From a virus: 21,770 nt of DNA. The position numbers and the translations under genes are program-made. Positions 13-13,400 of the stretch are shown here, in pieces. Every line of letters begins with the position of its first letter. The stretch's first letter is position 1. The notes below the pieces were generated by a model. That model was not told the DNA's origin and did not search any database. It saw nothing but the letters and a program-made list of their open reading frames with translations. The DNA lies in the UHGV virus genome UHGV-1845973, one strand, 5' to 3'.

Positions 13-969
13 TTAACCGATTGCTTTCAGGCCATGAACAAGAGCAAGTTGCGGGTCATCCGCCACGAAGAAACGGTCATCACGAATATTAACTTGCTCG
101 CGAATTGCATCTGCCACCAGCGGTGCGCCACCACCGATCACCATGACATGCGTATATCCTTTAAAGTCGCCAATCACATCAAGAACGCGGGTACGCAGAC
201 GGTCAATGCTTGCGGCAATGGCCTTTTTCACATCACCAATCGCTGATGGGTCATTGATATTGTCGTTCAGATAATCTTCATCGTGGCGGTTAATAATGAG
301 CTGATCAACATTGTAATTGGACGTTTCGGTATTGGCTCTGGCAAGTGCTTGCCTTACTTCCCTGGTAACCAGAGAGACGCCAAGATTCGAATCGCCAAAA
401 ACACGGGAAACTGCCGTCATTTGCCCGGCGACCATTGAAACATCAAGGGTAGTTCCACCCAAATCGACGATAAGAACAGAATGGGCAGGGTTCAGATTGT
501 CGCACAGGCCAATTCCTGCCGGAATAGACTCCGGTCGTACCGTAACTTTCTTAATCGTGAACACATTGCCTTTATTCAACGTGACGGGGCGCATAAGACT
601 GGATTTCTTGCGCTCGATGTTATCGAGATTGTATTGCGCGTCGTCGTCGTAAAACTCCGCCAGAGGCAGCGTGACCACAATTTCTACTTCCTGCGGCTCA
701 ATGCCACTTGTCAGCAGGGCATGGTGAACAGCCAGGACGTTAAGCGGGCTGTATTGCCATTCCACGTTATTCGTCGGCAGAACATCTGGCGAGATCAAAT
801 CATACGAATACTTTTCGTCGTCAATGACATAGTTAAACGGCTTGCCAGCACAAAATGTTGCTGACCATCCGCGCTTAAAGCTGTTAGGGCTGATGTGAGT
901 GCGAGTTTCCCCGTCGTGCTCCCACAGCATTTTGATATTGGTTGAACCATCATCGATAAAAATGCGCAT
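13..969 (-). CDS. parM: ParM-type actin-like plasmid segregation ATPase (type II partition)
   Basis: The translation MRIFIDDGSTNIK...HISPNSFKRGW...VAVHHALLTSG...IVDLGGTTLDVS...GDSNLGVSLVT...THVMVIGGGA aligns along its whole length with R1 ParM/StbA as I recall it, including the actin-fold phosphate and adenosine motifs. I prefer the ATG at 969, which has GGAG 7 nt upstream, over the GTG at 993 used by the ORF track. On the minus strand, positions 12..4 read GAGGTATG, which looks like the start of a downstream parR that runs off the window. Confidence 0.9.
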   Translation of the reverse strand: MRIFIDDGSTNIKMLWEHDGETRTHISPNSFKRGWSATFCAGKPFNYVIDDEKYSYDLISPDVLPTNNVEWQYSPLNVLAVHHALLTSGIEPQEVEIVVTLPLAEFYDDDAQYNLDNIERKKSSLMRPVTLNKGNVFTIKKVTVRPESIPAGIGLCDNLNPAHSVLIVDLGGTTLDVSMVAGQMTAVSRVFGDSNLGVSLVTREVRQALARANTETSNYNVDQLIINRHDEDYLNDNINDPSAIGDVKKAIAASIDRLRTRVLDVIGDFKGYTHVMVIGGGAPLVADAIREQVNIRDDRFFVADDPQLALVHGLKAIG

Positions 970-2381: not shown

Positions 2382-2855
2382 ATGAACCTGAAGAGGATGG
2401 TTTTGAAAAAGATAATTTTGATTGTAATTGCGCTTTTAGCCATTTCTGGAATTTACCGAACAACGACGGCAGTTATCGAACACATCAGGTATGTCCGATC
2501 GCTTGAAGACTCAAAATCACAACTGGAAAGCACGAACAACACGCTTTCTACCGCATTACAGTTAAGTGAGAACGCTCGCTCAGCCATGCTGACCGAAAAC
2601 GAAAGAATTAAAGCACTGGAAAAGGAGTACCAGCGCAAAACAGCAGAACTGAATGCCAACCTAATCAAACAACGAGAGGAAAGCCAGAATGAAATCACTC
2701 GCCTTGAAAATGCGTTACGCCGTGCTGGGATTAACGATGTGCGTGTGCCTGATGACGTTATCAGGATGCAGCGGGAACGGGCAAAAGCCATCAACCAGCG
2801 TGCCAGTGAAAATTACCGTAGAAGCCACCAGCAAGCCGCAGGCAAATCTGATTGA
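2382..2855 (+). CDS. i-spanin (Rz-like inner-membrane spanin subunit)
   Basis: It has an N-terminal TM anchor (KKIILIVIALLAISGIY) followed by a long charged coiled-coil-like periplasmic domain. A lipoprotein ORF is embedded in its +1 frame. The start is ambiguous between 2382 and 2397. Confidence 0.75.
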   Translation: MNLKRMVLKKIILIVIALLAISGIYRTTTAVIEHIRYVRSLEDSKSQLESTNNTLSTALQLSENARSAMLTENERIKALEKEYQRKTAELNANLIKQREESQNEITRLENALRRAGINDVRVPDDVIRMQRERAKAINQRASENYRRSHQQAAGKSD

Positions 2856-3021
2856 TTACTCCCCTTGTTTAGTGCCAGAGGACACGCCAGTGCTGTTAAA
2901 CAAGTATCCGACATACGCTGAACAGTTATTCAGCACGATCGACGAATGCAACCAACGAAACGCACTGAATAACCAAAAAAACAGGGAGATTTGGGAAGGG
3001 AAGGGGGATCAAGGCTCCTGA
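2689..3021 (+). CDS. o-spanin (Rz1-like outer-membrane lipoprotein spanin subunit)
   Basis: The signal peptide ends in the lipobox L-S-G-C (Cys27). The mature part is Pro-rich and contains additional Cys residues. The gene starts inside the i-spanin gene in the +1 frame and extends 166 nt beyond it (overlapped architecture). GAGAGGA lies 8 nt upstream of the ATG at 2689. Confidence 0.75.
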   Translation: MKSLALKMRYAVLGLTMCVCLMTLSGCSGNGQKPSTSVPVKITVEATSKPQANLIDYSPCLVPEDTPVLLNKYPTYAEQLFSTIDECNQRNALNNQKNREIWEGKGDQGS

Positions 3022-3467
3022 AGCCAGATGTCCTGGCTGTCAGCTTCTTCGAAACCGTGACAGACGTTAAAGTCACTCAAGCGATACTGACGCTGACGGC
3101 CTCTATTTCGCTCATGCCAATGCATGTATCCACCAGCAAATGCCAGCGGACAATCACTATAGTCTATGTAACCAATACCATTCCCCAAACGTGCTTCGCG
3201 CGCACCGGCTTTCCAGGACAGTAGAAAAGAGTCACGATCCGCCAGCATAACAACAAAATCGTCCGGATCTCCGATACAGTGAAGAATACCTGCCTTACAT
3301 AACTGCTTGAGCGCTTTGGGCTGGCTCAGGATGTCTTCTCCGTAATACTGAAAACAATCATCAACAACAGCGGGATAGCCTGCCGGGGGATTCAGGCTGG
3401 TTGGTATAGCTGACGCGATCGCCAGCATTAAGCGATATTGTGTTTTTGATGGGTTAACGTGACTCAT
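3009..3467 (-). CDS. Hypothetical protein (152 aa), second gene of the minus-strand cassette
   Basis: SD AAGGGA lies 4 nt upstream of the ATG, which is 17 nt after the upstream gene's stop. The 3' end overlaps the convergent o-spanin gene by 13 nt. A segment PKALKQLCKAGILHCIGD could be a winged-helix. I recognise no family. Confidence 0.55.
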   Translation of the reverse strand: MSHVNPSKTQYRLMLAIASAIPTSLNPPAGYPAVVDDCFQYYGEDILSQPKALKQLCKAGILHCIGDPDDFVVMLADRDSFLLSWKAGAREARLGNGIGYIDYSDCPLAFAGGYMHWHERNRGRQRQYRLSDFNVCHGFEEADSQDIWLQEP

Positions 3468-3483
3468 TTTGTCCCTTGTTTAC

Positions 3484-3918
3484 TCATTGTCGCCATGCAT
3501 TTTTTAACTCAGGAATATCTGCCATTTCAATTAACTTGCGAAGTCCAGCACTGACTTTCCCATTGCCAACCATAGCAAGCCAATCTCTTACAGCTTTCGG
3601 CATGTAGAGCGTTGCAGTTACCGGCTCTTCAACCCTGGCAGGACATCCGCATACAGGCCATTTAATTGACTCCATAACTTCGGATGCCGGGGTGAGGGCG
3701 GGGACATTGAGTATATCTCTACCAGAAAACTGGATAACGATCCGTTCAGCGAGCGAGAGTATCTCACTTTCGGCAAGAATTGATGCCAACTGCGCCTCAA
3801 CAAGAAAGCGACTTGTTGTGTTCAGAGAGTGGCTCTTAGCGCCATTTTTATACGAAACAAAGATTCGATACGCCATAACTCTAATGATTTGTGTTAGAAA
3901 ACTAAAATTAAACCACAT
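3484..3918 (-). CDS. Hypothetical protein with C-terminal ribbon-helix-helix (Arc/MetJ-like) DNA-binding domain
   Basis: The C-terminus TATLYMPKAVRDWLAMVGNGKVSAGLRKLIEMA fits the RHH beta-alphaA-alphaB pattern seen in Arc and Mnt. The N-terminal domain of about 85 aa is unassigned. The start is either ATG 3918 or ATG 3876 (MAYRIF...). A TAAAAT -10-like hexamer lies on the minus strand at 3949..3944. Confidence 0.5.
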   Translation of the reverse strand: MWFNFSFLTQIIRVMAYRIFVSYKNGAKSHSLNTTSRFLVEAQLASILAESEILSLAERIVIQFSGRDILNVPALTPASEVMESIKWPVCGCPARVEEPVTATLYMPKAVRDWLAMVGNGKVSAGLRKLIEMADIPELKNAWRQ

Positions 3919-3964
3919 AACAACATGTGTGTTAATAGATTTTATTTTACTAAACCTATTGACT

Positions 3965-3985
3965 AAATCACAAAGTAGGTATTGT
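3965..3985 (+). promoter_or_regulatory. Candidate -35-less (late-type) promoter: AAATCACAAA-N5-TATTGT
   Basis: The motif and spacing are the same as at 1191 and 20058. It lies 50 nt upstream of the capsid gene start. The adjacent TTGACT (3959..3964) is only 15 nt from the hexamer, which is too close for a normal sigma70 -35. Confidence 0.45.
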
Positions 3986-4034
3986 TAGTCCGTCAAAAGA
4001 ACCTTCACGCCGCGCCCGAATTTAGGGCTTAACC

Positions 4035-5732
4035 GTGAATAAAAACATTCAGCCAGCTCGTGATCGCGAGCGCGAGATTATGAATCGGGCGGCAAGCGTC
4101 ATGGCTATGACCGTCGATCCGACCACCGATGCAGCAGGCAACATGATTGCTGACCAGGCAGTAATGATGGAAAACCTGGATAAAGCAATCCAGAAAGTGC
4201 CTATGTTTGAAGGCGTAAATCCAGAGGTCGCTCGTCAGATCACTGGTGGGTGGGCTATGTCTCTGCATGAGTATAAACGTCAACATGGTCATTACCCGGC
4301 AAGTGACATCCTGGCGAACGCACACATGGCTCTTGAACGCCTAATGACTGAATGTGCCAGTGATACCCACGAAGGCACGGGTAAGGCAATGTTTGAGTCT
4401 GTCGCGCAATCAATGCGTAGCTCTGACGGCGTAATGAAAGTTGCTCAATATGCTGCTCTAATTCTGCCTGCCTCTCTGGGCGCTGCTACCAGTGATGCCT
4501 GTACTTTTGTTCCTTGTGATCGTGACGAGTCAAATATTTATGAACTGGTCAACGTAGCAGGCACAAAATTCGGCACCTTCAAACAAGGTGACGAACTGAA
4601 TATGCAGTCAGCTGGTGTTTATTCTCAAATGAAGCGCCTGTATACCCTTTCCACTAAAGGGGATGGCAGCACCAAAACCTTCCAGTTCGACATCCAAAAT
4701 TTTGAGGGACAATCCTGCCCGCTTCGCGCTGGTTATAGCAAACTGCTGATCAACCGCAAACCGTCCAAAGTTGACGACGGCGATGGCAACCTTTATTTCA
4801 ATGCTAAAGACAGCAAAGGTAAAGCTTTCTCAGCGACTGCCAAAGTCGCCTATGACACTGGTGTCATTGACATTACATTTACCCAGGCTCCGCCAGAAGG
4901 TACTGAAATTGCTGTTCAGGTCGAAATTAACATCGAGCGCAATCCAAGCCTGATTCCTGTGATCAACCAGGCTATGCGTAAGTACGAAGTTCGTCCGTCC
5001 CAGTACGTAATTGCTTCCGAACACACGGTAATGTCCGCATCCGATTTAAGCCGTGAGCACGGCCTTGAATTAGCGGCACTTCAGTTCTCCGCGATGCGTA
5101 ACTGGATCTCCCATGAAACCGACATCATGCGTCTGCGCACCCTGGTATTCCATACCGTTTATGGTCGTGAATTTGATGTGGCTCTGCCGGAAGCTCAAAA
5201 CTATGAGTCCTGGGTCGGCCTCCTGCGTCACGTAGTAAACGCTCTGTCTCAAGAAATGGCAAATCGTACCCTGACAACGGGTATTCGTGGCGGCTTTGCT
5301 GGTGGTGACGCCGCGAACTTCCTGCGCTCTCTGCCTCCACAGCACTTCCAGATCGCACCAGGTTACGTTCAGTCGCCGTATGTACAGTACATCGGCACCC
5401 TGTTTGGCACGATTCGTATTTACGAAGTGCCGCAACCTGTCTGTGAGCAATTCCAGGCACAGGGATATGACTTCGGGCTGGATGACATCTTCTTCTATGG
5501 GCGTGGCGAAGGCATCGGTAAAGCCGGTCTGATTGCTGGTGATGCAGTCCCAGCAATCCCTTACGTGCACGAAACCAATCCGTCTCTCGTTAACCGTACC
5601 ACTCTCTGGGGCAGTGCCATCAACGAAGTACATCCTCGCAACGGTGAAAACTACTTCACCCGCCTGCGTCTGACTCGCGCCAAAGAAGGTGCTATCGACA
5701 TGCTGACAGGCAAGGTTAACGAAAAAAAGTGA
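4035..5732 (+). CDS. Putative major capsid protein precursor (P1 gp23-like, about 62 kDa)
   Basis: It is the first gene of the structural block, followed by an Ig-like decoration-type ORF and the sheath gene. Codon usage looks strongly biased toward high expression (CGT, CTG, GGT, GAA). The size matches my recollection of the P1 gene 23 product. The GTG start at 4035 is uncertain. The function is assigned from synteny and memory, not from a recognised motif. Confidence 0.55.
   Translation: MNKNIQPARDREREIMNRAASVMAMTVDPTTDAAGNMIADQAVMMENLDKAIQKVPMFEGVNPEVARQITGGWAMSLHEYKRQHGHYPASDILANAHMALERLMTECASDTHEGTGKAMFESVAQSMRSSDGVMKVAQYAALILPASLGAATSDACTFVPCDRDESNIYELVNVAGTKFGTFKQGDELNMQSAGVYSQMKRLYTLSTKGDGSTKTFQFDIQNFEGQSCPLRAGYSKLLINRKPSKVDDGDGNLYFNAKDSKGKAFSATAKVAYDTGVIDITFTQAPPEGTEIAVQVEINIERNPSLIPVINQAMRKYEVRPSQYVIASEHTVMSASDLSREHGLELAALQFSAMRNWISHETDIMRLRTLVFHTVYGREFDVALPEAQNYESWVGLLRHVVNALSQEMANRTLTTGIRGGFAGGDAANFLRSLPPQHFQIAPGYVQSPYVQYIGTLFGTIRIYEVPQPVCEQFQAQGYDFGLDDIFFYGRGEGIGKAGLIAGDAVPAIPYVHETNPSLVNRTTLWGSAINEVHPRNGENYFTRLRLTRAKEGAIDMLTGKVNEKK
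5723..5729 (+). promoter_or_regulatory. Candidate -1 programmed ribosomal frameshift heptamer A_AAA_AAG
   Basis: The zero-frame codons are GAA AAA AAG TGA, so the heptamer is in the correct phase one codon before the capsid stop. The -1 frame stays open for 35 more codons, to the TAA at 5834..5836. Confidence 0.3.
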
Positions 5733-6225: not shown

Positions 6226-7884
6226 ATGAATAAGATTAGTTTTTCGGTAGGGCAGGCAGCTGGCGTTGCTGTAATGTCAGTAAATGCTGACGCTACCCTC
6301 ACCAATACCAGCGGTGGCGCATCCGTCTTTGCTGGGCTTGTAATATCGCGTCGTGGCGCACCGGGTAAGGTACTGAAAGTTGACGATACGACTTATCAAA
6401 GCGTATTAGGTTCACCGATTCACCCTCGCCAGGGCGCGGCATTTGAACCATATCGCCACGTGGAGCGTGCAGTAAAAGGCGGCTCTGGATATGTCGTTCG
6501 AGTTTGCGCTAAAGACATGAAGGTGCCGGGTATTTCTGTTTCCGTTGTGGGCAAAGCAAAAGCGGCAAAGGCGAGCAAAGAACTTTCCGTTGAACCTACT
6601 GAAACCACAGTAAATCCAGGTGACACATTAAGCGTTGGTGTTGCTTCAACTGCAACGACTCAATCAGTGACCTTCACACCCAAAGAGACGCCCCAGATTA
6701 AAGGTGAAGAGAAGGCATTATTCTTCATCAAAGATGGTGATGCATCTCAAAATCGCACGTTATCACTAACTCGCGATGATGAAGAAAGCGAACTCTTTAC
6801 GCTGACGCTGAAAGAAAAACAAACCGATGGGTCCATTGAGGTGCTGGAAAGCCACCAAGTGTCTTTCAATCCAGAAGGCACCAACGACATGGGCCAACCA
6901 GCATGGATTCCGACACTGCTTGAAAGCCAGTCCACTCGCATTGGTGCCGTACTGGCAGATAATGCAGAAGCATCCGCTGCTCAACTCATTTTTGAGGATG
7001 TAGCTTTTGAAGGTGGTACTGATGGAAATCTGTCCGAAATTAACGCTGCAGACTATCTGGAAGCATTAAAGGTTCTCGAAGCTTCAGAGGTTAATTACAC
7101 CGCATTGCTGTCACTGGGTTGTTATGACGCATCCGCCTTAGCCGCAATCAAAAAGCTGGCTGAAGATGTTCGCGTAGACATGTTCTATGACCTGAAGGGC
7201 AACCAGACACCTGAAAACGCTATTTCAGAAGCGAAAAGCCATAGTTTTGGCGGCTCACATCAACCAAGCCGTTACTACTTCCCGCTCTCCTGCCGAGATA
7301 CCTTCACTGGGATGAATGTCGTCTATGGCATTAGTTGCGACGCATTCGTAGCAAAAGCAAAAGGGGTAGCGCTGGTACCGGATGTTGGTGGTTGGCATTA
7401 CGCACCGGCAGGTATATCACGCGCGATTATTGATCGACAGAACATTGCCCGAATTCCAAATATCGGTGCAGTTGATCGTGAAGCGTTCGTTCTTGCGCGC
7501 ATTAATCCGGTTTCAGTTGCTGCTGATGGGTCCGTTTACATTGACGACTCTTTAACAACTTACAGCAAAAACAACTATCTGCGATTCCAGCATGTGTCTT
7601 CCTTGATGAACGCCATCGCCAGAGATTTCTATGAAGTAGCTCAGGCGATTAAGCACGAACCGGATGGCATTACCAAAGAAACGCTAATGAAAGCAATGAC
7701 TGAATTGCTTGACCGTTACGTTGCAGCCGGTGCGCTGGTTACTCCACGTGACAAGTCCCAGGGTGAAGATCCATACGTTGTTCAGGTTGTCCAAAAGGAC
7801 ATCGATCTGTGGGAAGTGTCCTGGTCTGTTTGTCCGACCGGTACAGCTCGCCGAATCGTCGGTAAGCCAATTCTGATGCGCTGA
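6226..7884 (+). CDS. Contractile tail sheath protein
   Basis: The C-terminal half shows the usual sheath pattern: GGWHYAPAGISRAII...REAFVLARINPVSVAADGSVYIDDSLTT...YLRFQHVSSLMNAIARD...LDRYVAAGALV. This corresponds to the PAG, INP, wG and R.l..i motifs of the P2 FI / T4 gp18 C-domain family. The N-terminal part carries an Ig-like insertion (LSVEPTETTVNPGDTLSVGV). Confidence 0.7.
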   Translation: MNKISFSVGQAAGVAVMSVNADATLTNTSGGASVFAGLVISRRGAPGKVLKVDDTTYQSVLGSPIHPRQGAAFEPYRHVERAVKGGSGYVVRVCAKDMKVPGISVSVVGKAKAAKASKELSVEPTETTVNPGDTLSVGVASTATTQSVTFTPKETPQIKGEEKALFFIKDGDASQNRTLSLTRDDEESELFTLTLKEKQTDGSIEVLESHQVSFNPEGTNDMGQPAWIPTLLESQSTRIGAVLADNAEASAAQLIFEDVAFEGGTDGNLSEINAADYLEALKVLEASEVNYTALLSLGCYDASALAAIKKLAEDVRVDMFYDLKGNQTPENAISEAKSHSFGGSHQPSRYYFPLSCRDTFTGMNVVYGISCDAFVAKAKGVALVPDVGGWHYAPAGISRAIIDRQNIARIPNIGAVDREAFVLARINPVSVAADGSVYIDDSLTTYSKNNYLRFQHVSSLMNAIARDFYEVAQAIKHEPDGITKETLMKAMTELLDRYVAAGALVTPRDKSQGEDPYVVQVVQKDIDLWEVSWSVCPTGTARRIVGKPILMR

Positions 7885-7891
7885 TTTATAA

Positions 7892-7913
7892 CCCCCGCTA
7901 AATGATGCGGGGG
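7892..7913 (+). terminator. GC hairpin after the sheath gene (7-bp stem CCCCCGC/GCGGGGG, 8-nt loop)
   Basis: It lies 8 nt after the sheath stop. No U-tract follows. It overlaps the purine-rich SD region of the next gene. Confidence 0.3.
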
Positions 7914-7927
7914 AGAGAGGTTTGAAT

Positions 7928-8662
7928 ATGAAAAATTATACTGCTGATCCTTTTATGCGTGCGATTTTCGGTTCTGGCTGCTTTGAAAGCGGTGATAAAT
8001 CCACGCAGGACAATAATGATAACGCCATGCTGGAAAGCGCAGGACAGAAAGGAAAGGACACTCAACCAAAGCCCAAAGACGACATTGAAACCGCGATGAT
8101 GGAAGCGGTTGAATCCCGTGCACAAGGTGATATGCGCAGCCTGGCAGCTTCCATGCTTGCTGGTTGGGTTGAAGATGGTGATCCGGAGGCTGACTCATTT
8201 GATGCATTAGCAATCACTATGGCTGGCCTGGCTGATATCGATGAAGACACCGATTTCACCGATGAGCAAATCGATGCTTATAACGATGCACTCGCAGCTC
8301 TTGCTGATGCAGCTGTTGCGCTTGGCGCTGATCAGGATGATGTAACCGAAATGATCGACGATGAAGATGACTCAGCTGCCGAACGTGTTTATGACGCTCT
8401 TTCCGAAAGCGACACCGACATGATGGAAACAGCTATTGCCATTTACACCGTTGCTGGTGGTGATAGCGCAATGCTGGAAGCGGTACGTAAAAAAGTGGTT
8501 CGTGATGGCAAGGTAACCATCATCCGTAAACGCCCGCGTCCTCGCCGCATGACGTCATTGCAAAAACAGGCGCTGAAAAAAGCACGCCGCAAAGCACATA
8601 CATCCGTAGCGAATATCAACCGCAAAAAATCAATGCGCATTCGCAAAAAACGCGGTTTGTAA
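7928..8662 (+). CDS. Hypothetical bipolar protein: Asp/Glu-rich body and strongly basic C-terminal tail
   Basis: I prefer the ATG at 7928, which has GAGAGAGG 8 nt upstream, over the TTG at 7922. The middle of the protein is very acidic (IDEDTDFTDEQID, MIDDEDDSAAE). The last 55 aa or so are Lys/Arg-rich (RKRPRPRR...KKARRKAH...RKKSMRIRKKRGL). Confidence 0.55.
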   Translation: MKNYTADPFMRAIFGSGCFESGDKSTQDNNDNAMLESAGQKGKDTQPKPKDDIETAMMEAVESRAQGDMRSLAASMLAGWVEDGDPEADSFDALAITMAGLADIDEDTDFTDEQIDAYNDALAALADAAVALGADQDDVTEMIDDEDDSAAERVYDALSESDTDMMETAIAIYTVAGGDSAMLEAVRKKVVRDGKVTIIRKRPRPRRMTSLQKQALKKARRKAHTSVANINRKKSMRIRKKRGL

Positions 8663-8711
8663 GTGACATAGGCCGTCTGCAAAGGTGGCCTCTACCTGGG
8701 AGAAATAGCGT

Positions 8712-9302
8712 TTGATTTGCGGCGCGATAATGCCTGACGGAATAAGTCCGTTAATGAAGGTTTATATCCTCTCTTCAGAGGATATGGTCGTCGGTTATAT
8801 CGGTGAAGGATCTACCGCAGAACTGTCATCAATGTGGCAATCACCATTTGAAAACCAGTCAGTAGGAGGTTTGCTTGGTGGTATTAGCGCTGCGGCTGGC
8901 TCTCTTGCAGATACGCTTCAGACCGCAACCGGCGTAACAACAAAAACCCTCTTCAACTCAATGCTTGTTTGGGAAGGTCAGCAACCGCCTGAATTTAATC
9001 TGGTAATTGATTTCATGGCGACAACGAACGCGCAACTTGAAGTAAACGCAGCCATTACAGCATTGCTGAAGATGGAATCGCCGGAACTGAACAATGTAGC
9101 GCCATTCGGTCGTCGCCCGGAGACAGTAACGTTAAACATAGGTAGGAACATAGCCCTTACCGACGTTGTTATCAAAAGCGTGAGTTACCAACTGGACGCC
9201 CCACGCACACCGGAAGGCTATTTCACTCATAACACGGTAACCCTGCAATGCAGCGGAAACACCTCGATTAACCGTAGCAACATATCATCTGTTTTTGTGT
9301 AG
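8712..9302 (+). CDS. Hypothetical virion or tail protein
   Basis: It lies between the sheath and tube genes. The start is ambiguous among TTG 8712 (GGGAGA 9 nt upstream), ATG 8730 and ATG 8754. I recognise no confident family. Confidence 0.45.
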   Translation: MICGAIMPDGISPLMKVYILSSEDMVVGYIGEGSTAELSSMWQSPFENQSVGGLLGGISAAAGSLADTLQTATGVTTKTLFNSMLVWEGQQPPEFNLVIDFMATTNAQLEVNAAITALLKMESPELNNVAPFGRRPETVTLNIGRNIALTDVVIKSVSYQLDAPRTPEGYFTHNTVTLQCSGNTSINRSNISSVFV

Positions 9303-9310
9303 GAGTATTT

Positions 9311-9802
9311 ATGTCCGGTTTTGCAAATACAAAAGCCGATATCGCTTTTCTGAAATCCCGGTTGAACAAAAACCTGGCAGCGGGCGAAAAACTTATTGGT
9401 TCAGAATTCTGGATGACTATTAAAGGTTACGAAAAACTATCTGTACTTGTTCGTACCACTCAGTTGCCGGAAATGACTCGCGAAGACGTGGAAGACTATG
9501 GTCCTGGCGGCATGAAGATCAACCAGCACGGGCCATTGCGTAACTCAGGTGAATTCCAGGTTACCTGCTCTGAAACCATCGAAGGGGATGTTCTGGCCGC
9601 CGTAAAACAAATGGTATATGGCAAAGAATATCTGGAAATTACCTTACAGGCAGCGGCTGAATCCAATAGCGGTAACCATAAAGGTCTGATCCGCACATAT
9701 TATCACTGCAAAGTGTATTCCGACGCAGTGGACTTCTCCACCGAAGACGTAACAGCAGTCGTTAAGCCTTCCCTGCGTATTGTTTACAACTGGGTAGAGT
9801 GA
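9311..9802 (+). CDS. Tail tube protein (P2 FII / Hcp-like)
   Basis: The 163-aa size fits. The segment VLVRTTQLPEMTREDVEDYGPGGMKINQHGPLRNSGEFQVTCSE parallels P2 FII SVTLPKLTRKLENYRGAGMNGSAPVDLGL...MEWSLGG as I recall it. A hairpin follows the gene. Confidence 0.6.
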   Translation: MSGFANTKADIAFLKSRLNKNLAAGEKLIGSEFWMTIKGYEKLSVLVRTTQLPEMTREDVEDYGPGGMKINQHGPLRNSGEFQVTCSETIEGDVLAAVKQMVYGKEYLEITLQAAAESNSGNHKGLIRTYYHCKVYSDAVDFSTEDVTAVVKPSLRIVYNWVE

Positions 9803-9807
9803 TCTCT

Positions 9808-9828
9808 TTCCCGCCCTTGTGGCGGGAA
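9808..9828 (+). terminator. Hairpin after the tube gene (8-bp stem TTCCCGCC/GGCGGGAA, 5-nt loop)
   Basis: It lies 6 nt after the stop and is followed by ctccttgtattt, a partial T-run. It is the most terminator-like of the intercistronic hairpins. Confidence 0.4.
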
Positions 9829-9854
9829 CTCCTTGTATTTGAGTTGTAGGTACG

Positions 9855-10406
9855 ATGACACCAACCGAATTATTAGAAAGCGTTAAAGTACGATTTAATC
9901 CACTGCTTGTGCGTGAAGAAGAAACGCTGAAAGCCTTCCTGATCAAAGCTCTGACCACGTATCAGGACAGGGCAGGGGTAGTGAAAACGTTAAAACTTGA
10001 AAAAGCTGGTGGTACTGCAATCCCATTACCAGAAGATTATCTCTCTCTGGTTCATGTTACCGACAACAATGGCCTGTTGGTCTATTCGGATGAATTATCC
10101 GGATTTATTGAATTAGAGCTAACAGGTTCAGAACGCTGGCCTTTTCGAATGCTGTATCTGGTTAATCTACGCGACAGAAAGCTGGATGAATGGCAAGTGC
10201 CTCCTGCAATCATTGGAATGCTGGAGGAATATCTGGAGGCGCTTATCAATGTAAGAAATGTCGCCCGGCAGCGTAGAGCGTCCATCGACGGGAAATTTGA
10301 CTACTCCGATCTGCCCGATGAAGCCACGCTATATGCCCGCGTGCAGGAGATTGAGGAAAAAATGTCCTCAAACCGGGCCATTATTCCGGGGGCTACCATT
10401 TTTTAA
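9855..10406 (+). CDS. Hypothetical virion morphogenesis protein (183 aa)
   Basis: It is an ORF in the co-oriented structural block. I recognise no family. Confidence 0.45.
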   Translation: MTPTELLESVKVRFNPLLVREEETLKAFLIKALTTYQDRAGVVKTLKLEKAGGTAIPLPEDYLSLVHVTDNNGLLVYSDELSGFIELELTGSERWPFRMLYLVNLRDRKLDEWQVPPAIIGMLEEYLEALINVRNVARQRRASIDGKFDYSDLPDEATLYARVQEIEEKMSSNRAIIPGATIF

Positions 10407-10421
10407 CGCTGGAGGCGCAGA

Positions 10422-11129
10422 GTGAGTATTTTCAGCAGCGTTGGTAGAACGTTGACCACCGCATTGTCATTTAACACGAAATCATTCACCAGCAACCTCA
10501 TTAGCGACATTCTTGATAAAGCCATATCAGGCGGCGGGGTAAGCGGGAATTACAGTAGCGATATTGCCTACGGGAAAAATATTGTTGCTGCCGCTATGCG
10601 TATCCGTTACGCCCAGGGGTGGCAGTGGACCGTTGAAGTGGATGGCCTGAACGGCTTCGATATGTTCGTGAAGGATATCACCTACAGCAGTGGAAACATT
10701 GAGACAGAAAGCAAGGTGATCGGCAGCGTAGAATTCAGCAAGCCAACCTATGTTAGCGCTGGACCGGTCACTATGACCGTGAGGGATACCGAAGATGGCA
10801 AGATCATGGACTGGTTCAAAGAGCGTCGTTCTCGTGTAACAAATCCTGATGGAACAATAAACCTTCCTCCGGAATATCTGATGAAAATCCGTGTCTACCG
10901 GGTAACTCAGGACGGCGGAAAAGAACTGGAAGAAGAAATGCGCGTATTTCCTACACAACTTGGGGAAATCACTCGCTCACGTGATCAGGTGTCAGAGTTC
11001 TTGTCATACCCAATCACTTTCCAGAAATACACATCTGCAGGCTCAGGTGTTTCTGCCTTGGTCAACGGTGCCGCTGGCATGGCTACAAGTGCGTTAAAGG
11101 GGGCTATCAGTGGAGTGATCAAATTCTGA
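10422..11129 (+). CDS. Hypothetical tail or baseplate protein (235 aa)
   Basis: The GTG start has GGAGG 7 nt upstream. The pattern W.W.VEVDG...FVKDITYSSG...TMTVRDTEDGKIMDWF...PPEYLMKIRVYRV loosely recalls T4-type baseplate or tube-initiator proteins. I consider this similarity weak. Confidence 0.4.
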   Translation: MSIFSSVGRTLTTALSFNTKSFTSNLISDILDKAISGGGVSGNYSSDIAYGKNIVAAAMRIRYAQGWQWTVEVDGLNGFDMFVKDITYSSGNIETESKVIGSVEFSKPTYVSAGPVTMTVRDTEDGKIMDWFKERRSRVTNPDGTINLPPEYLMKIRVYRVTQDGGKELEEEMRVFPTQLGEITRSRDQVSEFLSYPITFQKYTSAGSGVSALVNGAAGMATSALKGAISGVIKF

Positions 11130-11140
11130 AATGCTTTAAT

Positions 11141-11364
11141 TATGTGTGCTGTAGGGAAAGGTTTACGTTAAATGTGTGCTGCCGGGAAACCCCATTGCTC
11201 AAGATGTGTTGTAGAGGGAATGGTAATGGCAACATGTGTGCTGGAGGGGAATTTCGCATGTAAAGAGCGTCATTTATCCCTCCAGCACACATCTGAAATA
11301 AGCAATCCTCTGAAATTCCCTCCACCACACATCCAGACATGAAACTATCCCTTCAGCACACATT
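11141..11364. repeat. incA-like iteron array: seven 19-bp RepA-binding repeats downstream of repA
   Basis: Four copies have the GATGTGTGCTGGAGGGAAA orientation, at 11141, 11171, 11203 (diverged) and 11233. Three copies have the opposite orientation, at 11275, 11315 and 11346. The last overlaps the repA stop codon. The core CAGCACACAT/ATGTGTGCTG is conserved. Confidence 0.85.
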
Positions 11365-12227
11365 TAATCTGTTGGTTTAAGTTTCGGATTCCGAGAGTGA
11401 ACGATAATGAAGTTTTCACGACCTTGCTTTTCAATGGTGCAATCGAGATAACCTATTGTTTTTAACTGGTCTATAGCTTTTTTTATCGTTCTGTTTTGCT
11501 CACTTACCGATGACATCAAGGCTAATCTTTCACGTATTCTGGCAAATGAAATAGGTATTGGACGTGCCGGGAGGCTTTCTATAAAGGTATATATGGCCTG
11601 GGCTGCTTCTTTTTTAGGTAAAGCGCGAAGTGCGTGTTGCTGTAGAAGCACCCGATAGTCTAGCTGGAAGATTTCCCATAACTTGGAATCAGCCTCCAGT
11701 TCAACGACATCTGTTTCAAAGTCAAAATATCCCGTTTTAAGCAGGCCAGTATTGTAGCTTCCACGAGCACTTTTCCCTCTTTTGAATGAGATGCCTTTGT
11801 TGCGTAACCGACCTAAAGAATCGTGGATCGTGTTTCTTAATTTCCCATCAAGTCGCTTAGATGGAAATCCGCACGCCTTTGCAAATTCTTGAAAAGAAAG
11901 GCGAATTGTATTCGATGATAAGCCATACTTGCTAAATGAGTAGATTACCCCAATCCAGACTTTGAAATCAGTATCCATGTCCAAGCGAGGGCCAGTGATC
12001 TTGATGTTGTCGTAGCCTTCTGCTTGAGCTATTTCCAATTTGGAAAAAACAGATGATGCATCTATCTCGTTGTTTTCACCCTGTTTTTTAGTTGGTTTAG
12101 GGACGAAAACACCAAGCCGCATAAGTGCGACAGGTTGAACAGTATTGTTCGAATTAACTGTTAATTCTTTAGCCTTGCTTTCAATGTCAGCATAAAGAAT
12201 ATCAGAGATAAATGACTTATCCATCAA
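11364..12227 (-). CDS. repA: P1-type plasmid replication initiator RepA
   Basis: The 287-aa product is near-colinear with P1 RepA as I recall it: FISDILYADIESKAKELTVNSNNTVQPVALMRLGVFVPKP...ITGPRLDMDTDFK...LSFQEFAKACGFPSKRLD...ALPKKEAAQAIYTFIESLP...IVHSRNPKLK. It is flanked on both sides by P1-type 19-bp iterons. Confidence 0.95.
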   Translation of the reverse strand: MMDKSFISDILYADIESKAKELTVNSNNTVQPVALMRLGVFVPKPTKKQGENNEIDASSVFSKLEIAQAEGYDNIKITGPRLDMDTDFKVWIGVIYSFSKYGLSSNTIRLSFQEFAKACGFPSKRLDGKLRNTIHDSLGRLRNKGISFKRGKSARGSYNTGLLKTGYFDFETDVVELEADSKLWEIFQLDYRVLLQQHALRALPKKEAAQAIYTFIESLPARPIPISFARIRERLALMSSVSEQNRTIKKAIDQLKTIGYLDCTIEKQGRENFIIVHSRNPKLKPTD

Positions 12228-12280
12228 TAAGTTACCGTCATGTTGTGAATAAAGTTTACGACAGTGGATATCCGGCTTTT

Positions 12281-12384
12281 TTTCCCGTCAGCACACATCC
12301 TACATCCCGTCAGCACACATGTAAAACCCTCCAGCACACATATTTTTCCCGTCAGCACACATCGTTCTCCCTCCAGCACACATC
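12281..12384. repeat. incC-like origin iterons: five direct 19-bp repeats
   Basis: TTTCCC(GT/TC)CAGCACACATC-type repeats start at 12281, 12303, 12324, 12345 and 12366. The spacings are 22, 21, 21 and 21 bp, about two helical turns, and all copies share one orientation. They lie immediately upstream of repA, as in P1 oriR. Confidence 0.9.
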
Positions 12385-12429
12385 TGAATAGTGGTTAAAG
12401 CCTTATGTGGCGCGGCCTGAAGAGCTACG

Positions 12430-12492
12430 GGATCTATTTGGTACTATATGGATCTAATCAGGATCTATATATTGGATCTATCCTGTGGATAA
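12430..12492. other. oriR-like origin core: four GGATCTA heptamers carrying GATC (Dam) sites in an AT-rich stretch, plus a perfect DnaA box
   Basis: GATC occurs at 12431, 12451, 12462 and 12475, each within GGATCTA. TGTGGATAA at 12484..12492 is the reverse complement of TTATCCACA. A weaker DnaA-box-like AGTGGATAT lies at 12262..12270, between the iterons and repA. Confidence 0.8.
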
Positions 12493-12578
12493 AAAAGAAG
12501 AATTACAAAGCTCCACCCAATTTCACACACTACCTATCCTCCAACGAATAAACAGACATCTGCTTATCGGAGGAATAC

Positions 12579-13400
12579 TTGAACATTCCAAAATTCCCAT
12601 TGCCTTCCCGTCCTGAGACAGAAATTCAGTTCCACGCCCCTACCGTGAAGGATGCGCTGAAATATTCTGACCTGAACCCGGCAGAAGATGAGGCAACTAC
12701 TACAGAGTACCTTAACTCTATGCAGGATGGTGAAATTAACGACAGTGCTTACTGGACAGTCCAGGATCGCAGAACTGCCCTTTGGTGGATATTTGTTAAT
12801 TCGCGCCCCGATGCAGTAATGACCTACTCCTATGAGTGCAGTCACTGCGGTAATACGCATCATGCAGATATTAACCTGAGCGACCTGGCCCAAACAGTAG
12901 AAATACTCACTGTACCTCCTTACGTGAAAACCAACGTACCAGTAAATGGAGTACCAACTGACTGGATACTTAAACCATTAACCGGGAAAGGTGCGGAACT
13001 CCTTGAACGAATGCGAGCGTCACTTCCTGATATGAAAAGTCCCGAATACAGTGCTGGCGTAGCACGGATGCGAATTGCTGAACTCGCTTTATGCACGGCG
13101 CTTGAAGACGATCCGGAGGACTTCACGCAGGCCGCTAACCGACGCTTTGACATCATTGAAAGCATGGCGCTTGAAACCGAATTTACTCCGCTTGTGGCTC
13201 GCATACAGCTTATGCAAAAAGACCTACGTCACGGCCTGAAAATGTCTATTGAGAGAGGCTCAAGCCGACTGATCCTGCCTCCGCAACATTGCAAAAACGC
13301 TAAGGAGGGTGCAGATGTGACAACCACACTGTACGTCCCCTTTCTCAATAGAGAGTTTATCCCATCAATTAGATCTGAATGGATGGCTAACCATTATTAA
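12579..13400 (+). CDS. Hypothetical tail assembly protein (273 aa) preceding the tape-measure gene
   Basis: The TTG start has GGAGGA 4 nt upstream. The gene sits directly upstream of the giant tail protein. It contains a CSHCG...HH element. The function is inferred from position only. Confidence 0.4.
   Translation: MNIPKFPLPSRPETEIQFHAPTVKDALKYSDLNPAEDEATTTEYLNSMQDGEINDSAYWTVQDRRTALWWIFVNSRPDAVMTYSYECSHCGNTHHADINLSDLAQTVEILTVPPYVKTNVPVNGVPTDWILKPLTGKGAELLERMRASLPDMKSPEYSAGVARMRIAELALCTALEDDPEDFTQAANRRFDIIESMALETEFTPLVARIQLMQKDLRHGLKMSIERGSSRLILPPQHCKNAKEGADVTTTLYVPFLNREFIPSIRSEWMANHY

Follow-up and report, generated by a model that had tools for sequence, protein, structure and literature searches.

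A probable P1/IncY-type plasmid replicon with five origin and seven incA iterons in a D6-like phage-plasmid

A stretch of 21,770 nucleotides (nt) from the virus genome UHGV-1845973, referred to as the window, carries at positions 11141-12492, on the minus strand, an initiator gene (repA) flanked by two arrays of 19-bp iterons. We propose that this module functions as an iteron-controlled theta replicon of the P1/IncY type and maintains, as its plasmid replicon, a D6-like phage-plasmid of roughly 93-97 kb, a reading to which we give a probability of about 0.9. What was observed in this work is the gene with its full set of cis elements, how these are ordered, phased and oriented, and the selection acting on them. 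A sequence-only reading of the same DNA had taken it for a complete oriR-repA-incA replicon of the P1 type, laid out as 5 + 7 iterons, and every element that it listed was recovered where it had been placed. The module is collinear with those of P1, P7 and Cronobacter phage JK004 in order, spacing and orientation, and comprises the following features:

11364-12224, minus strand: repA, encoding a 286-amino-acid (aa) iteron-binding initiator of the Rep3 WH1/WH2 family, annotated as WP_000361425.1
12281-12384, minus strand: oriR/incC, five direct 19-bp iterons starting at 12281, 12303, 12324, 12345 and 12366, with spacings of 22/21/21/21 bp
12297-12325, minus strand: predicted repA promoter, with the -35 hexamer TTTACA (12325-12320), a 17-nt spacer and the -10 hexamer TAGGAT (12302-12297)
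12430-12480, no strand assigned: AT-rich putative opening region with four GGATCTA heptamers (12430, 12450, 12461 and 12474), each holding one Dam GATC site
12484-12492, minus strand: single distal DnaA box, TTATCCACA, a perfect match
12244-12252, minus strand: repA-proximal DnaA-like box, TTATTCACA, 1 mismatch, aligning with CTATCCACA in P1
12263-12271, minus strand: repA-proximal DnaA-like box, ATATCCACT, 2 mismatches, aligning with TTATCACCA in P1
11141-11159, plus strand: incA iteron 1, the most distal, TATGTGTGCTGTAGGGAAA, 26.9 bits, starting 11 nt past the stop codon of the neighbouring tail tube gene (tub homologue)
11171-11189, plus strand: incA iteron 2, AATGTGTGCTGCCGGGAAA, 26.8 bits
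11203-11221, plus strand: incA iteron 3, degenerate, GATGTGTTGTAGAGGGAAT, 20.5 bits, 4 mismatches
11233-11251, plus strand: incA iteron 4, CATGTGTGCTGGAGGGGAA, 26.9 bits
11275-11293, minus strand: incA iteron 5, first of the proximal block and oriented like the origin iterons, 31.2 bits
11315-11333, minus strand: incA iteron 6, 27.1 bits
11346-11364, minus strand: incA iteron 7, 28.4 bits, overlapping the repA stop codon by 1 nt as does copy 9 in P1 and P7

RepA aligns with P1 RepA without gaps over 283 of its 286 aa at 84% identity, and nucleotide identity between the two genes is only 70%, which points to an old lineage and not to a recent derivative of P1. Codons that differ between the two genes comprise 146 with synonymous changes only and 49 with non-synonymous changes (183 of the differences lie at third positions), indicating strong purifying selection on repA. 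The protein matches the Pfam family Rep3_N (E=2e-6, 28.6 bits, passing the curated cut-off of 22.4); Rep3_C scores 19.2 bits, under its cut-off of 21.1 bits, and searches of NCBIfam and of PDB sequences with RepA returned no match.

The 19-mer GATGTGTGCTGGAGGGAAA, given in the sequence-only reading as the P1 iteron and used here as the scan query, matches two P1 iterons exactly, incA copy 6 and incC copy 14. It finds 9 sites in the window at no more than 3 mismatches and 12 at no more than 5, against 0 in 100 shuffles at the stricter threshold. With a position weight matrix (PWM) built from the P1 and window copies, all 12 window iterons score 20-31 bits, and shuffled windows give 0-2 matches at 9 bits or above. 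The consensus derived from the 12 window iterons is again GATGTGTGCTGGAGGGAAA, the same as that of P1, with positions 2-7 and 14-16 invariant.

The origin side of the module agrees closely with P1 and P7, sharing with them the 286-aa RepA, the consensus 19-bp iteron, five origin iterons at 21-22 bp, an embedded repA promoter with the same -10, AT-rich GATC heptamers and DnaA boxes on both sides. The five direct copies upstream of repA, whose 21-22 bp spacing had been correctly noted, are collinear with P1 copies 10-14. Inside these iterons lies the sole sigma-70-like promoter predicted in 11000-12700, and its -10 hexamer TAGGAT is the annotated P1 repA -10 at the same position; RepA bound to the origin would therefore repress its own synthesis. 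The four heptamers and the perfect DnaA box beyond the iterons were all found as described. The heptamers align with the Dam sites of P1 and P7 and account for every GATC in the origin (four, compared with five in P1), in a stretch of 68% A+T against 54% for the whole window. As for the weaker DnaA box expected on the repA side, its presence held good, but there are two such boxes instead of one, so that the origin has one perfect distal and two imperfect proximal boxes at its two ends.

By homology with P1, RepA monomers would bind the five phased origin iterons, host DnaA would bind the flanking boxes and assist opening, and the AT-rich stretch of Dam-methylated heptamers would open. RepA would repress its own promoter via the embedded iterons, and the seven incA iterons would titrate RepA and pair with the origin (handcuffing), keeping the copy number low. 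From this likeness we infer autonomous replication, Dam and DnaA dependence, autorepression, handcuffing and IncY incompatibility. Replicons of the P1/IncY type require RepA, DnaA, Dam and the chaperones DnaK/J/GrpE, and the window module would be expected to do the same.

The main departure from P1 lies in incA. Seven copies stand downstream of repA, four in one orientation and three in the other, with the last touching the repA stop codon, just as had been read from the sequence. P1 incA does have nine copies, as had been stated, arranged as 6 + 3, and the window locus is shorter; the layout is thus 5 + 9 in P1 and P7, with 3 proximal and 6 inverted distal incA iterons, and 5 + 7 in the window, with 3 and 4. 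Both arrangements share the three proximal iterons in origin orientation followed by an inverted distal block, at about 31/41 bp spacing (proximal spacing 31/40/42 in the window and 31/41/40 in P1). The proposed alignment to P1 and P7 oriR/incA was run in both orientations and places the seven window copies at the seven repA-proximal P1 positions, with the two most distal ones missing, an equivalence that is positional only because the spacers, about 31% identical, bar any finer assignment. With two fewer distal iterons, the module is therefore not identical to P1 in iteron number, and the difference is real. Iteron columns of the window and P1 incA are 80% identical compared with 31% for the spacers, indicating that each incA iteron is maintained by selection. 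The copy at 11203, singled out earlier as clearly degenerate, is weak in the sense that it carries four mismatches, but at 20.5 bits it is no worse than P1 copies 2, 3 and 5 (20.6, 17.7 and 23.8 bits). Two open reading frames run across incA, one of 66 aa (11140-11340, minus strand) and one of 56 aa (11172-11342, plus strand); both are iteron-derived, with repeated 'CVLEG' and 'LQHT' motifs, and are almost certainly spurious.

Among relatives whose RepA is 70-95% identical, the number of downstream iterons spans a wide range, about 4 to about 13, and several have 3 + 4:

JK004: 74% nucleotide identity over the module; 8 downstream iterons
Salmonella phage-plasmids CP053320.1 and NZ_CP146848.1: RepA 94.8% identical; 8 downstream iterons (3 + 5)
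Enterobacter hormaechei p60214CZ_1 (NZ_CP085744.1): RepA 92.7% identical; about 11 downstream iterons
F-type conjugative plasmids: RepA about 91% identical; about 4 downstream iterons
Pantoea, Mixta and other plasmids: RepA 70-75% identical; about 7-13 downstream iterons, several of them 3 + 4, and one plasmid with a single detected copy

The origin, by contrast with this variation, keeps five iterons at 21/21/21/22 wherever the PWM stays valid, with 3-4 detected in two relatives at 70-74%. The two Salmonella phage-plasmids have the closest non-identical RepA and the same layout of five origin iterons, three proximal and an inverted distal block, but in them parA-parB follows and the surroundings are P1-like (PAAR ... 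ppfA ... repA parA parB), unlike the window. In the Enterobacter plasmid the module occupies the same site as in the window, between tub and pmgB homologues, in the same orientation, with parA-parB between incA and tub (7108-12659 of p60214CZ_1), which the window lacks; minus parAB and the distal iterons, it resembles the window version. The F-type conjugative plasmids, from Salmonella, Citrobacter and E. coli, are closer to the window in RepA than is P1 at 84%, which indicates that this replicon type circulates among both conjugative plasmids and phage-plasmids; their origins hold five iterons (in one plasmid a single copy was detected), and the flanking genes are umuDC and a DNA methylase gene. 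Pantoea/Erwinia IncY-like plasmids such as pPagL15_3 share near-identical iterons and five origin iterons with the window at 72-75% RepA identity, but they are ordinary plasmids, not phage-plasmids, with 7-13 downstream copies at looser spacing. RepFIB proper is more remote, its RepA being only about 50% identical. The seven-copy count is thus an ordinary one within the normal range of the family, and array copy number is not a defining feature of the P1/IncY-type replicon; such a range makes the iteron count look freely tuned or compensated, with little consequence.

These comparisons bear on the suggestion of the sequence-only reading that copy number or incompatibility may differ from P1. 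That the seven-copy incA and the single distal DnaA box make the module a functionally distinct variant, one markedly above P1 in copy number or of a new incompatibility specificity, we regard as possible but rather unlikely. Two distal iterons fewer than in P1 and P7 would fit such a variant, as would a -35 hexamer, TTTACA, that is nearer the consensus than TTGCTA of P1, and removing incA repeats from P1 reportedly raises copy number. Against this stand the breadth of array sizes among relatives with the recurrent 3 + 4 arrangement and the identity of the iteron consensus with that of P1; a single DnaA box is also said to be enough for P1 oriR. As to incompatibility, pPagL15_3 from Pantoea, with a RepA 73% identical to that of P1 and near-identical iterons, was displaced by P1 experimentally, and earlier IncY plasmids at 72-73% identity are cited in the same study (PMC10999674). 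Since its RepA is 84% identical to that of P1 and its iteron consensus is the same, the replicon of the window is predicted to be IncY, and a new incompatibility group appears unlikely from these sequences. Its copy number may be modestly above that of P1.

The element that carries the replicon can be recognized from its surroundings. Positions 11100-12580 are 100% identical to the 96-kb E. coli plasmid pB2C_96 (NZ_CP035876.1) in PLSDB, and the cassette is at least 99.5% identical in 8 further PLSDB plasmid records from E. coli and Salmonella (9 with pB2C_96), namely 7 circular plasmids of 92-97 kb and 1 incomplete linear record of 35 kb. RepA is identical in 8 of the 9 plasmids and 99.7% identical in the ninth. 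A search of 5426 complete E. coli genomes recovered the cassette in 7, plasmid-borne every time, and a one-genome-per-species scan gave no RepA match beyond 84% identity, which means that the species-representative genomes lack the cassette. The 35-kb Salmonella record NZ_CP044179.1 was considered as a natural mini-replicon and rejected, being linear and incomplete and still holding head and tail genes.

The replicon is embedded in phage structural genes, with tail sheath, baseplate and tail tube on the tub side, and homologues of the sit transglycosylase and tail fibre genes beyond the pmgB homologue. The neighbouring genes referred to here are:

10422-11129, plus strand: tail tube gene (tub homologue), the left flank, outside the replicon and marking the left junction of the cassette
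12579-13400, plus strand: pmgB homologue, the right flank, with D6 homology picking up again at about 12505
13-969, minus strand: ParM-type segregation gene, about 10 kb from the replicon, its partner lying just beyond the window edge

Because the flanks are 96-98% identical to phage D6, the host element is, as judged by this homology, a D6-like phage-plasmid and not P1 itself. D6-like phage-plasmids form the P1-g2 subgroup of Pfeifer et al., in which replication and partition are stated to be separated (PMC7969092). The window has the same arrangement: no parA-parB-parS was found directly downstream of incA, where it follows in P1, and head and tail genes stand between the replicon and the ParM-type gene, so replication and partition are unlinked, unlike in P1. 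Partition is presumably supplied by this ParM/ParR-type system some 10 kb off. The module thus sits between tub and pmgB in a D6-like genome, whereas that of P1 is in the rep-par position. The D6-like host, the lack of parAB and the missing second distal DnaA box had all been absent from the sequence-only reading.

Outside the window, pB2C_96 has a cargo gene, full-length glnS for glutamine-tRNA ligase, and also a 2-kb gene for a Dam-family methyltransferase, which is relevant to an origin dependent on GATC methylation; the two genes lie in stretches 974-2635 and 2684-4759 of pB2C_96.

That the module is in use as a plasmid replicon is argued by its intact elements, by the conservation of RepA in the 9 plasmids and by the fact that RepA is the sole annotated initiator on pB2C_96, where rep_cluster_2221 is also the only MOB-suite replicon cluster. 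Several observations nevertheless weigh against this conclusion. The PLSDB gene table is incomplete, so that a second replicon elsewhere or a repL-type lytic replicon is possible. The best match to the cassette among sequenced phages has only 74% nucleotide identity, and the phage search found no sequenced phage isolate that bears it. ParAB is missing beside the replicon, and the distal DnaA box is single here, compared with a tandem pair in P1, P7 and JK004: only the first box of the pair is kept, with TTATCCACT changed to the perfect TTATCCACA, and P1 homology stops right after it, D6 homology restarting about 12 nt on (12484-12510).

Taken further, the same losses could describe a decaying relic, with a truncated incA, a lost DnaA box and lost parAB, on an element maintained by another replicon. 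The abrupt end of incA at tub, the end of P1 homology at the first DnaA box and the use of a different Rep3 cassette by most D6-like plasmids would all fit, but repA is intact and under purifying selection, and all cis elements are intact and phased. Moreover, no second initiator is annotated in pB2C_96, the window holds no D6-type iterons, and the plasmids with the window cassette lack the D6-type one and match D6 in the flanks only; we therefore consider a relic very improbable. Chance or low-complexity similarity of the repeats, with no replicon function, has a negligible probability, since shuffles yielded 0 matches against the 9-12 observed and the repeat positions are conserved across five relatives in which the spacers have diverged.

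The functional P1/IncY-type replicon favoured here is one of two cassettes known from this site. In phage D6 and about 100 PLSDB plasmids, the site between tub and pmgB is occupied, in the same orientation, by a gene for a 251-aa Rep3 initiator (orf42, pfam01051). The D6 replicon resembles that of the window in general plan, in that iterons stand on both sides of a Rep3 gene, together with a DnaA box and an AT-rich stretch containing GATC sites. No significant similarity was detected between the D6 Rep and the window RepA (BLASTP E=0.05), and the D6-type iteron TGAGGGCAAATCTTACACC has 0 matches in the window at no more than 3 mismatches, leaving no relic of a replacement in the opposite direction; the window therefore has neither an orf42-like initiator nor TGAGGGCAAATCTTACACC iterons, the features by which a D6-type Rep3 replicon is recognized. 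We also considered the D6-type Rep as the 'p0111' replicase of P1-like elements, which it probably is not, as the sole tblastn matches among phages are D6 itself and distant proteins from Sodalis and Acinetobacter.

D6 and the window are homologous across the tub stop codon and into the first P1-type iteron, up to about 11157, and again from about 12505, so the exchanged cassette is essentially the replicon itself. In D6, two relic P1-type iterons follow the tub stop codon, at 5042-5060 (plus strand) and 5065-5083 (minus strand) of the D6 stretch L004, the first being homologous to the window iteron at 11141-11159. The relics are also present in D6-type plasmids (at about 3542-3583 in the stretches L015 and L016), including a variant that is 92.7% identical. 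Their presence suggests either that a D6-type cassette replaced a P1-type one or that the iterons served as the recombination junction. Since the full module of p60214CZ_1 lies at the same site and relic iterons persist in the D6-type plasmids, a P1-type module between tub and pmgB is probably ancestral in this lineage. The event, a deletion or a recombination, that fixed the tub junction probably also left incA with seven copies. Three states are thus seen at the site: a full P1-type rep-par module in Enterobacter, a P1-type module without par in the window, and a D6-type Rep3 replicon with two relics in about 100 plasmids. That the site is a replicon-exchange hotspot with its left junction inside a P1-type iteron is a tentative and rather doubtful extension of this sequence comparison. 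If it were true, the seven-copy incA would be a direct product of recombination at an iteron, and the relic iterons of the D6-type plasmids could bind an IncY-type RepA, giving titration or handcuffing cross-talk between otherwise compatible phage-plasmids.

The orientation of the module is also of note, as repA, on the minus strand, is antisense to the late tail operon, in which tub and pmgB are on the plus strand (11130-12578). No terminator-like site was predicted between tub and the 3' end of repA, and late read-through would therefore run antisense over repA and the origin. One may speculate that such read-through switches off plasmid replication during lytic growth. An Rfam scan of the whole window returned zero RNA families.

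In sum, the replicon is an ordinary member of the P1/IncY family with natural variation in the number of its control iterons, and it holds nothing new for the mechanism of P1-type replication. At about 70% nucleotide identity to P1 repA, threshold-based typing limited to IncY and p0111 would probably not type it as IncY. Incompatibility with P1-type (IncY) elements is predicted for D6-like phage-plasmids of the window type but not for the more numerous plasmids of the D6 type. The two cassettes, on phage backbones that are nearly identical, illustrate cleanly how replicons are exchanged in nature, and this dimorphism, together with the relic iterons, is a modest footnote to the evolution of these phage-plasmids.

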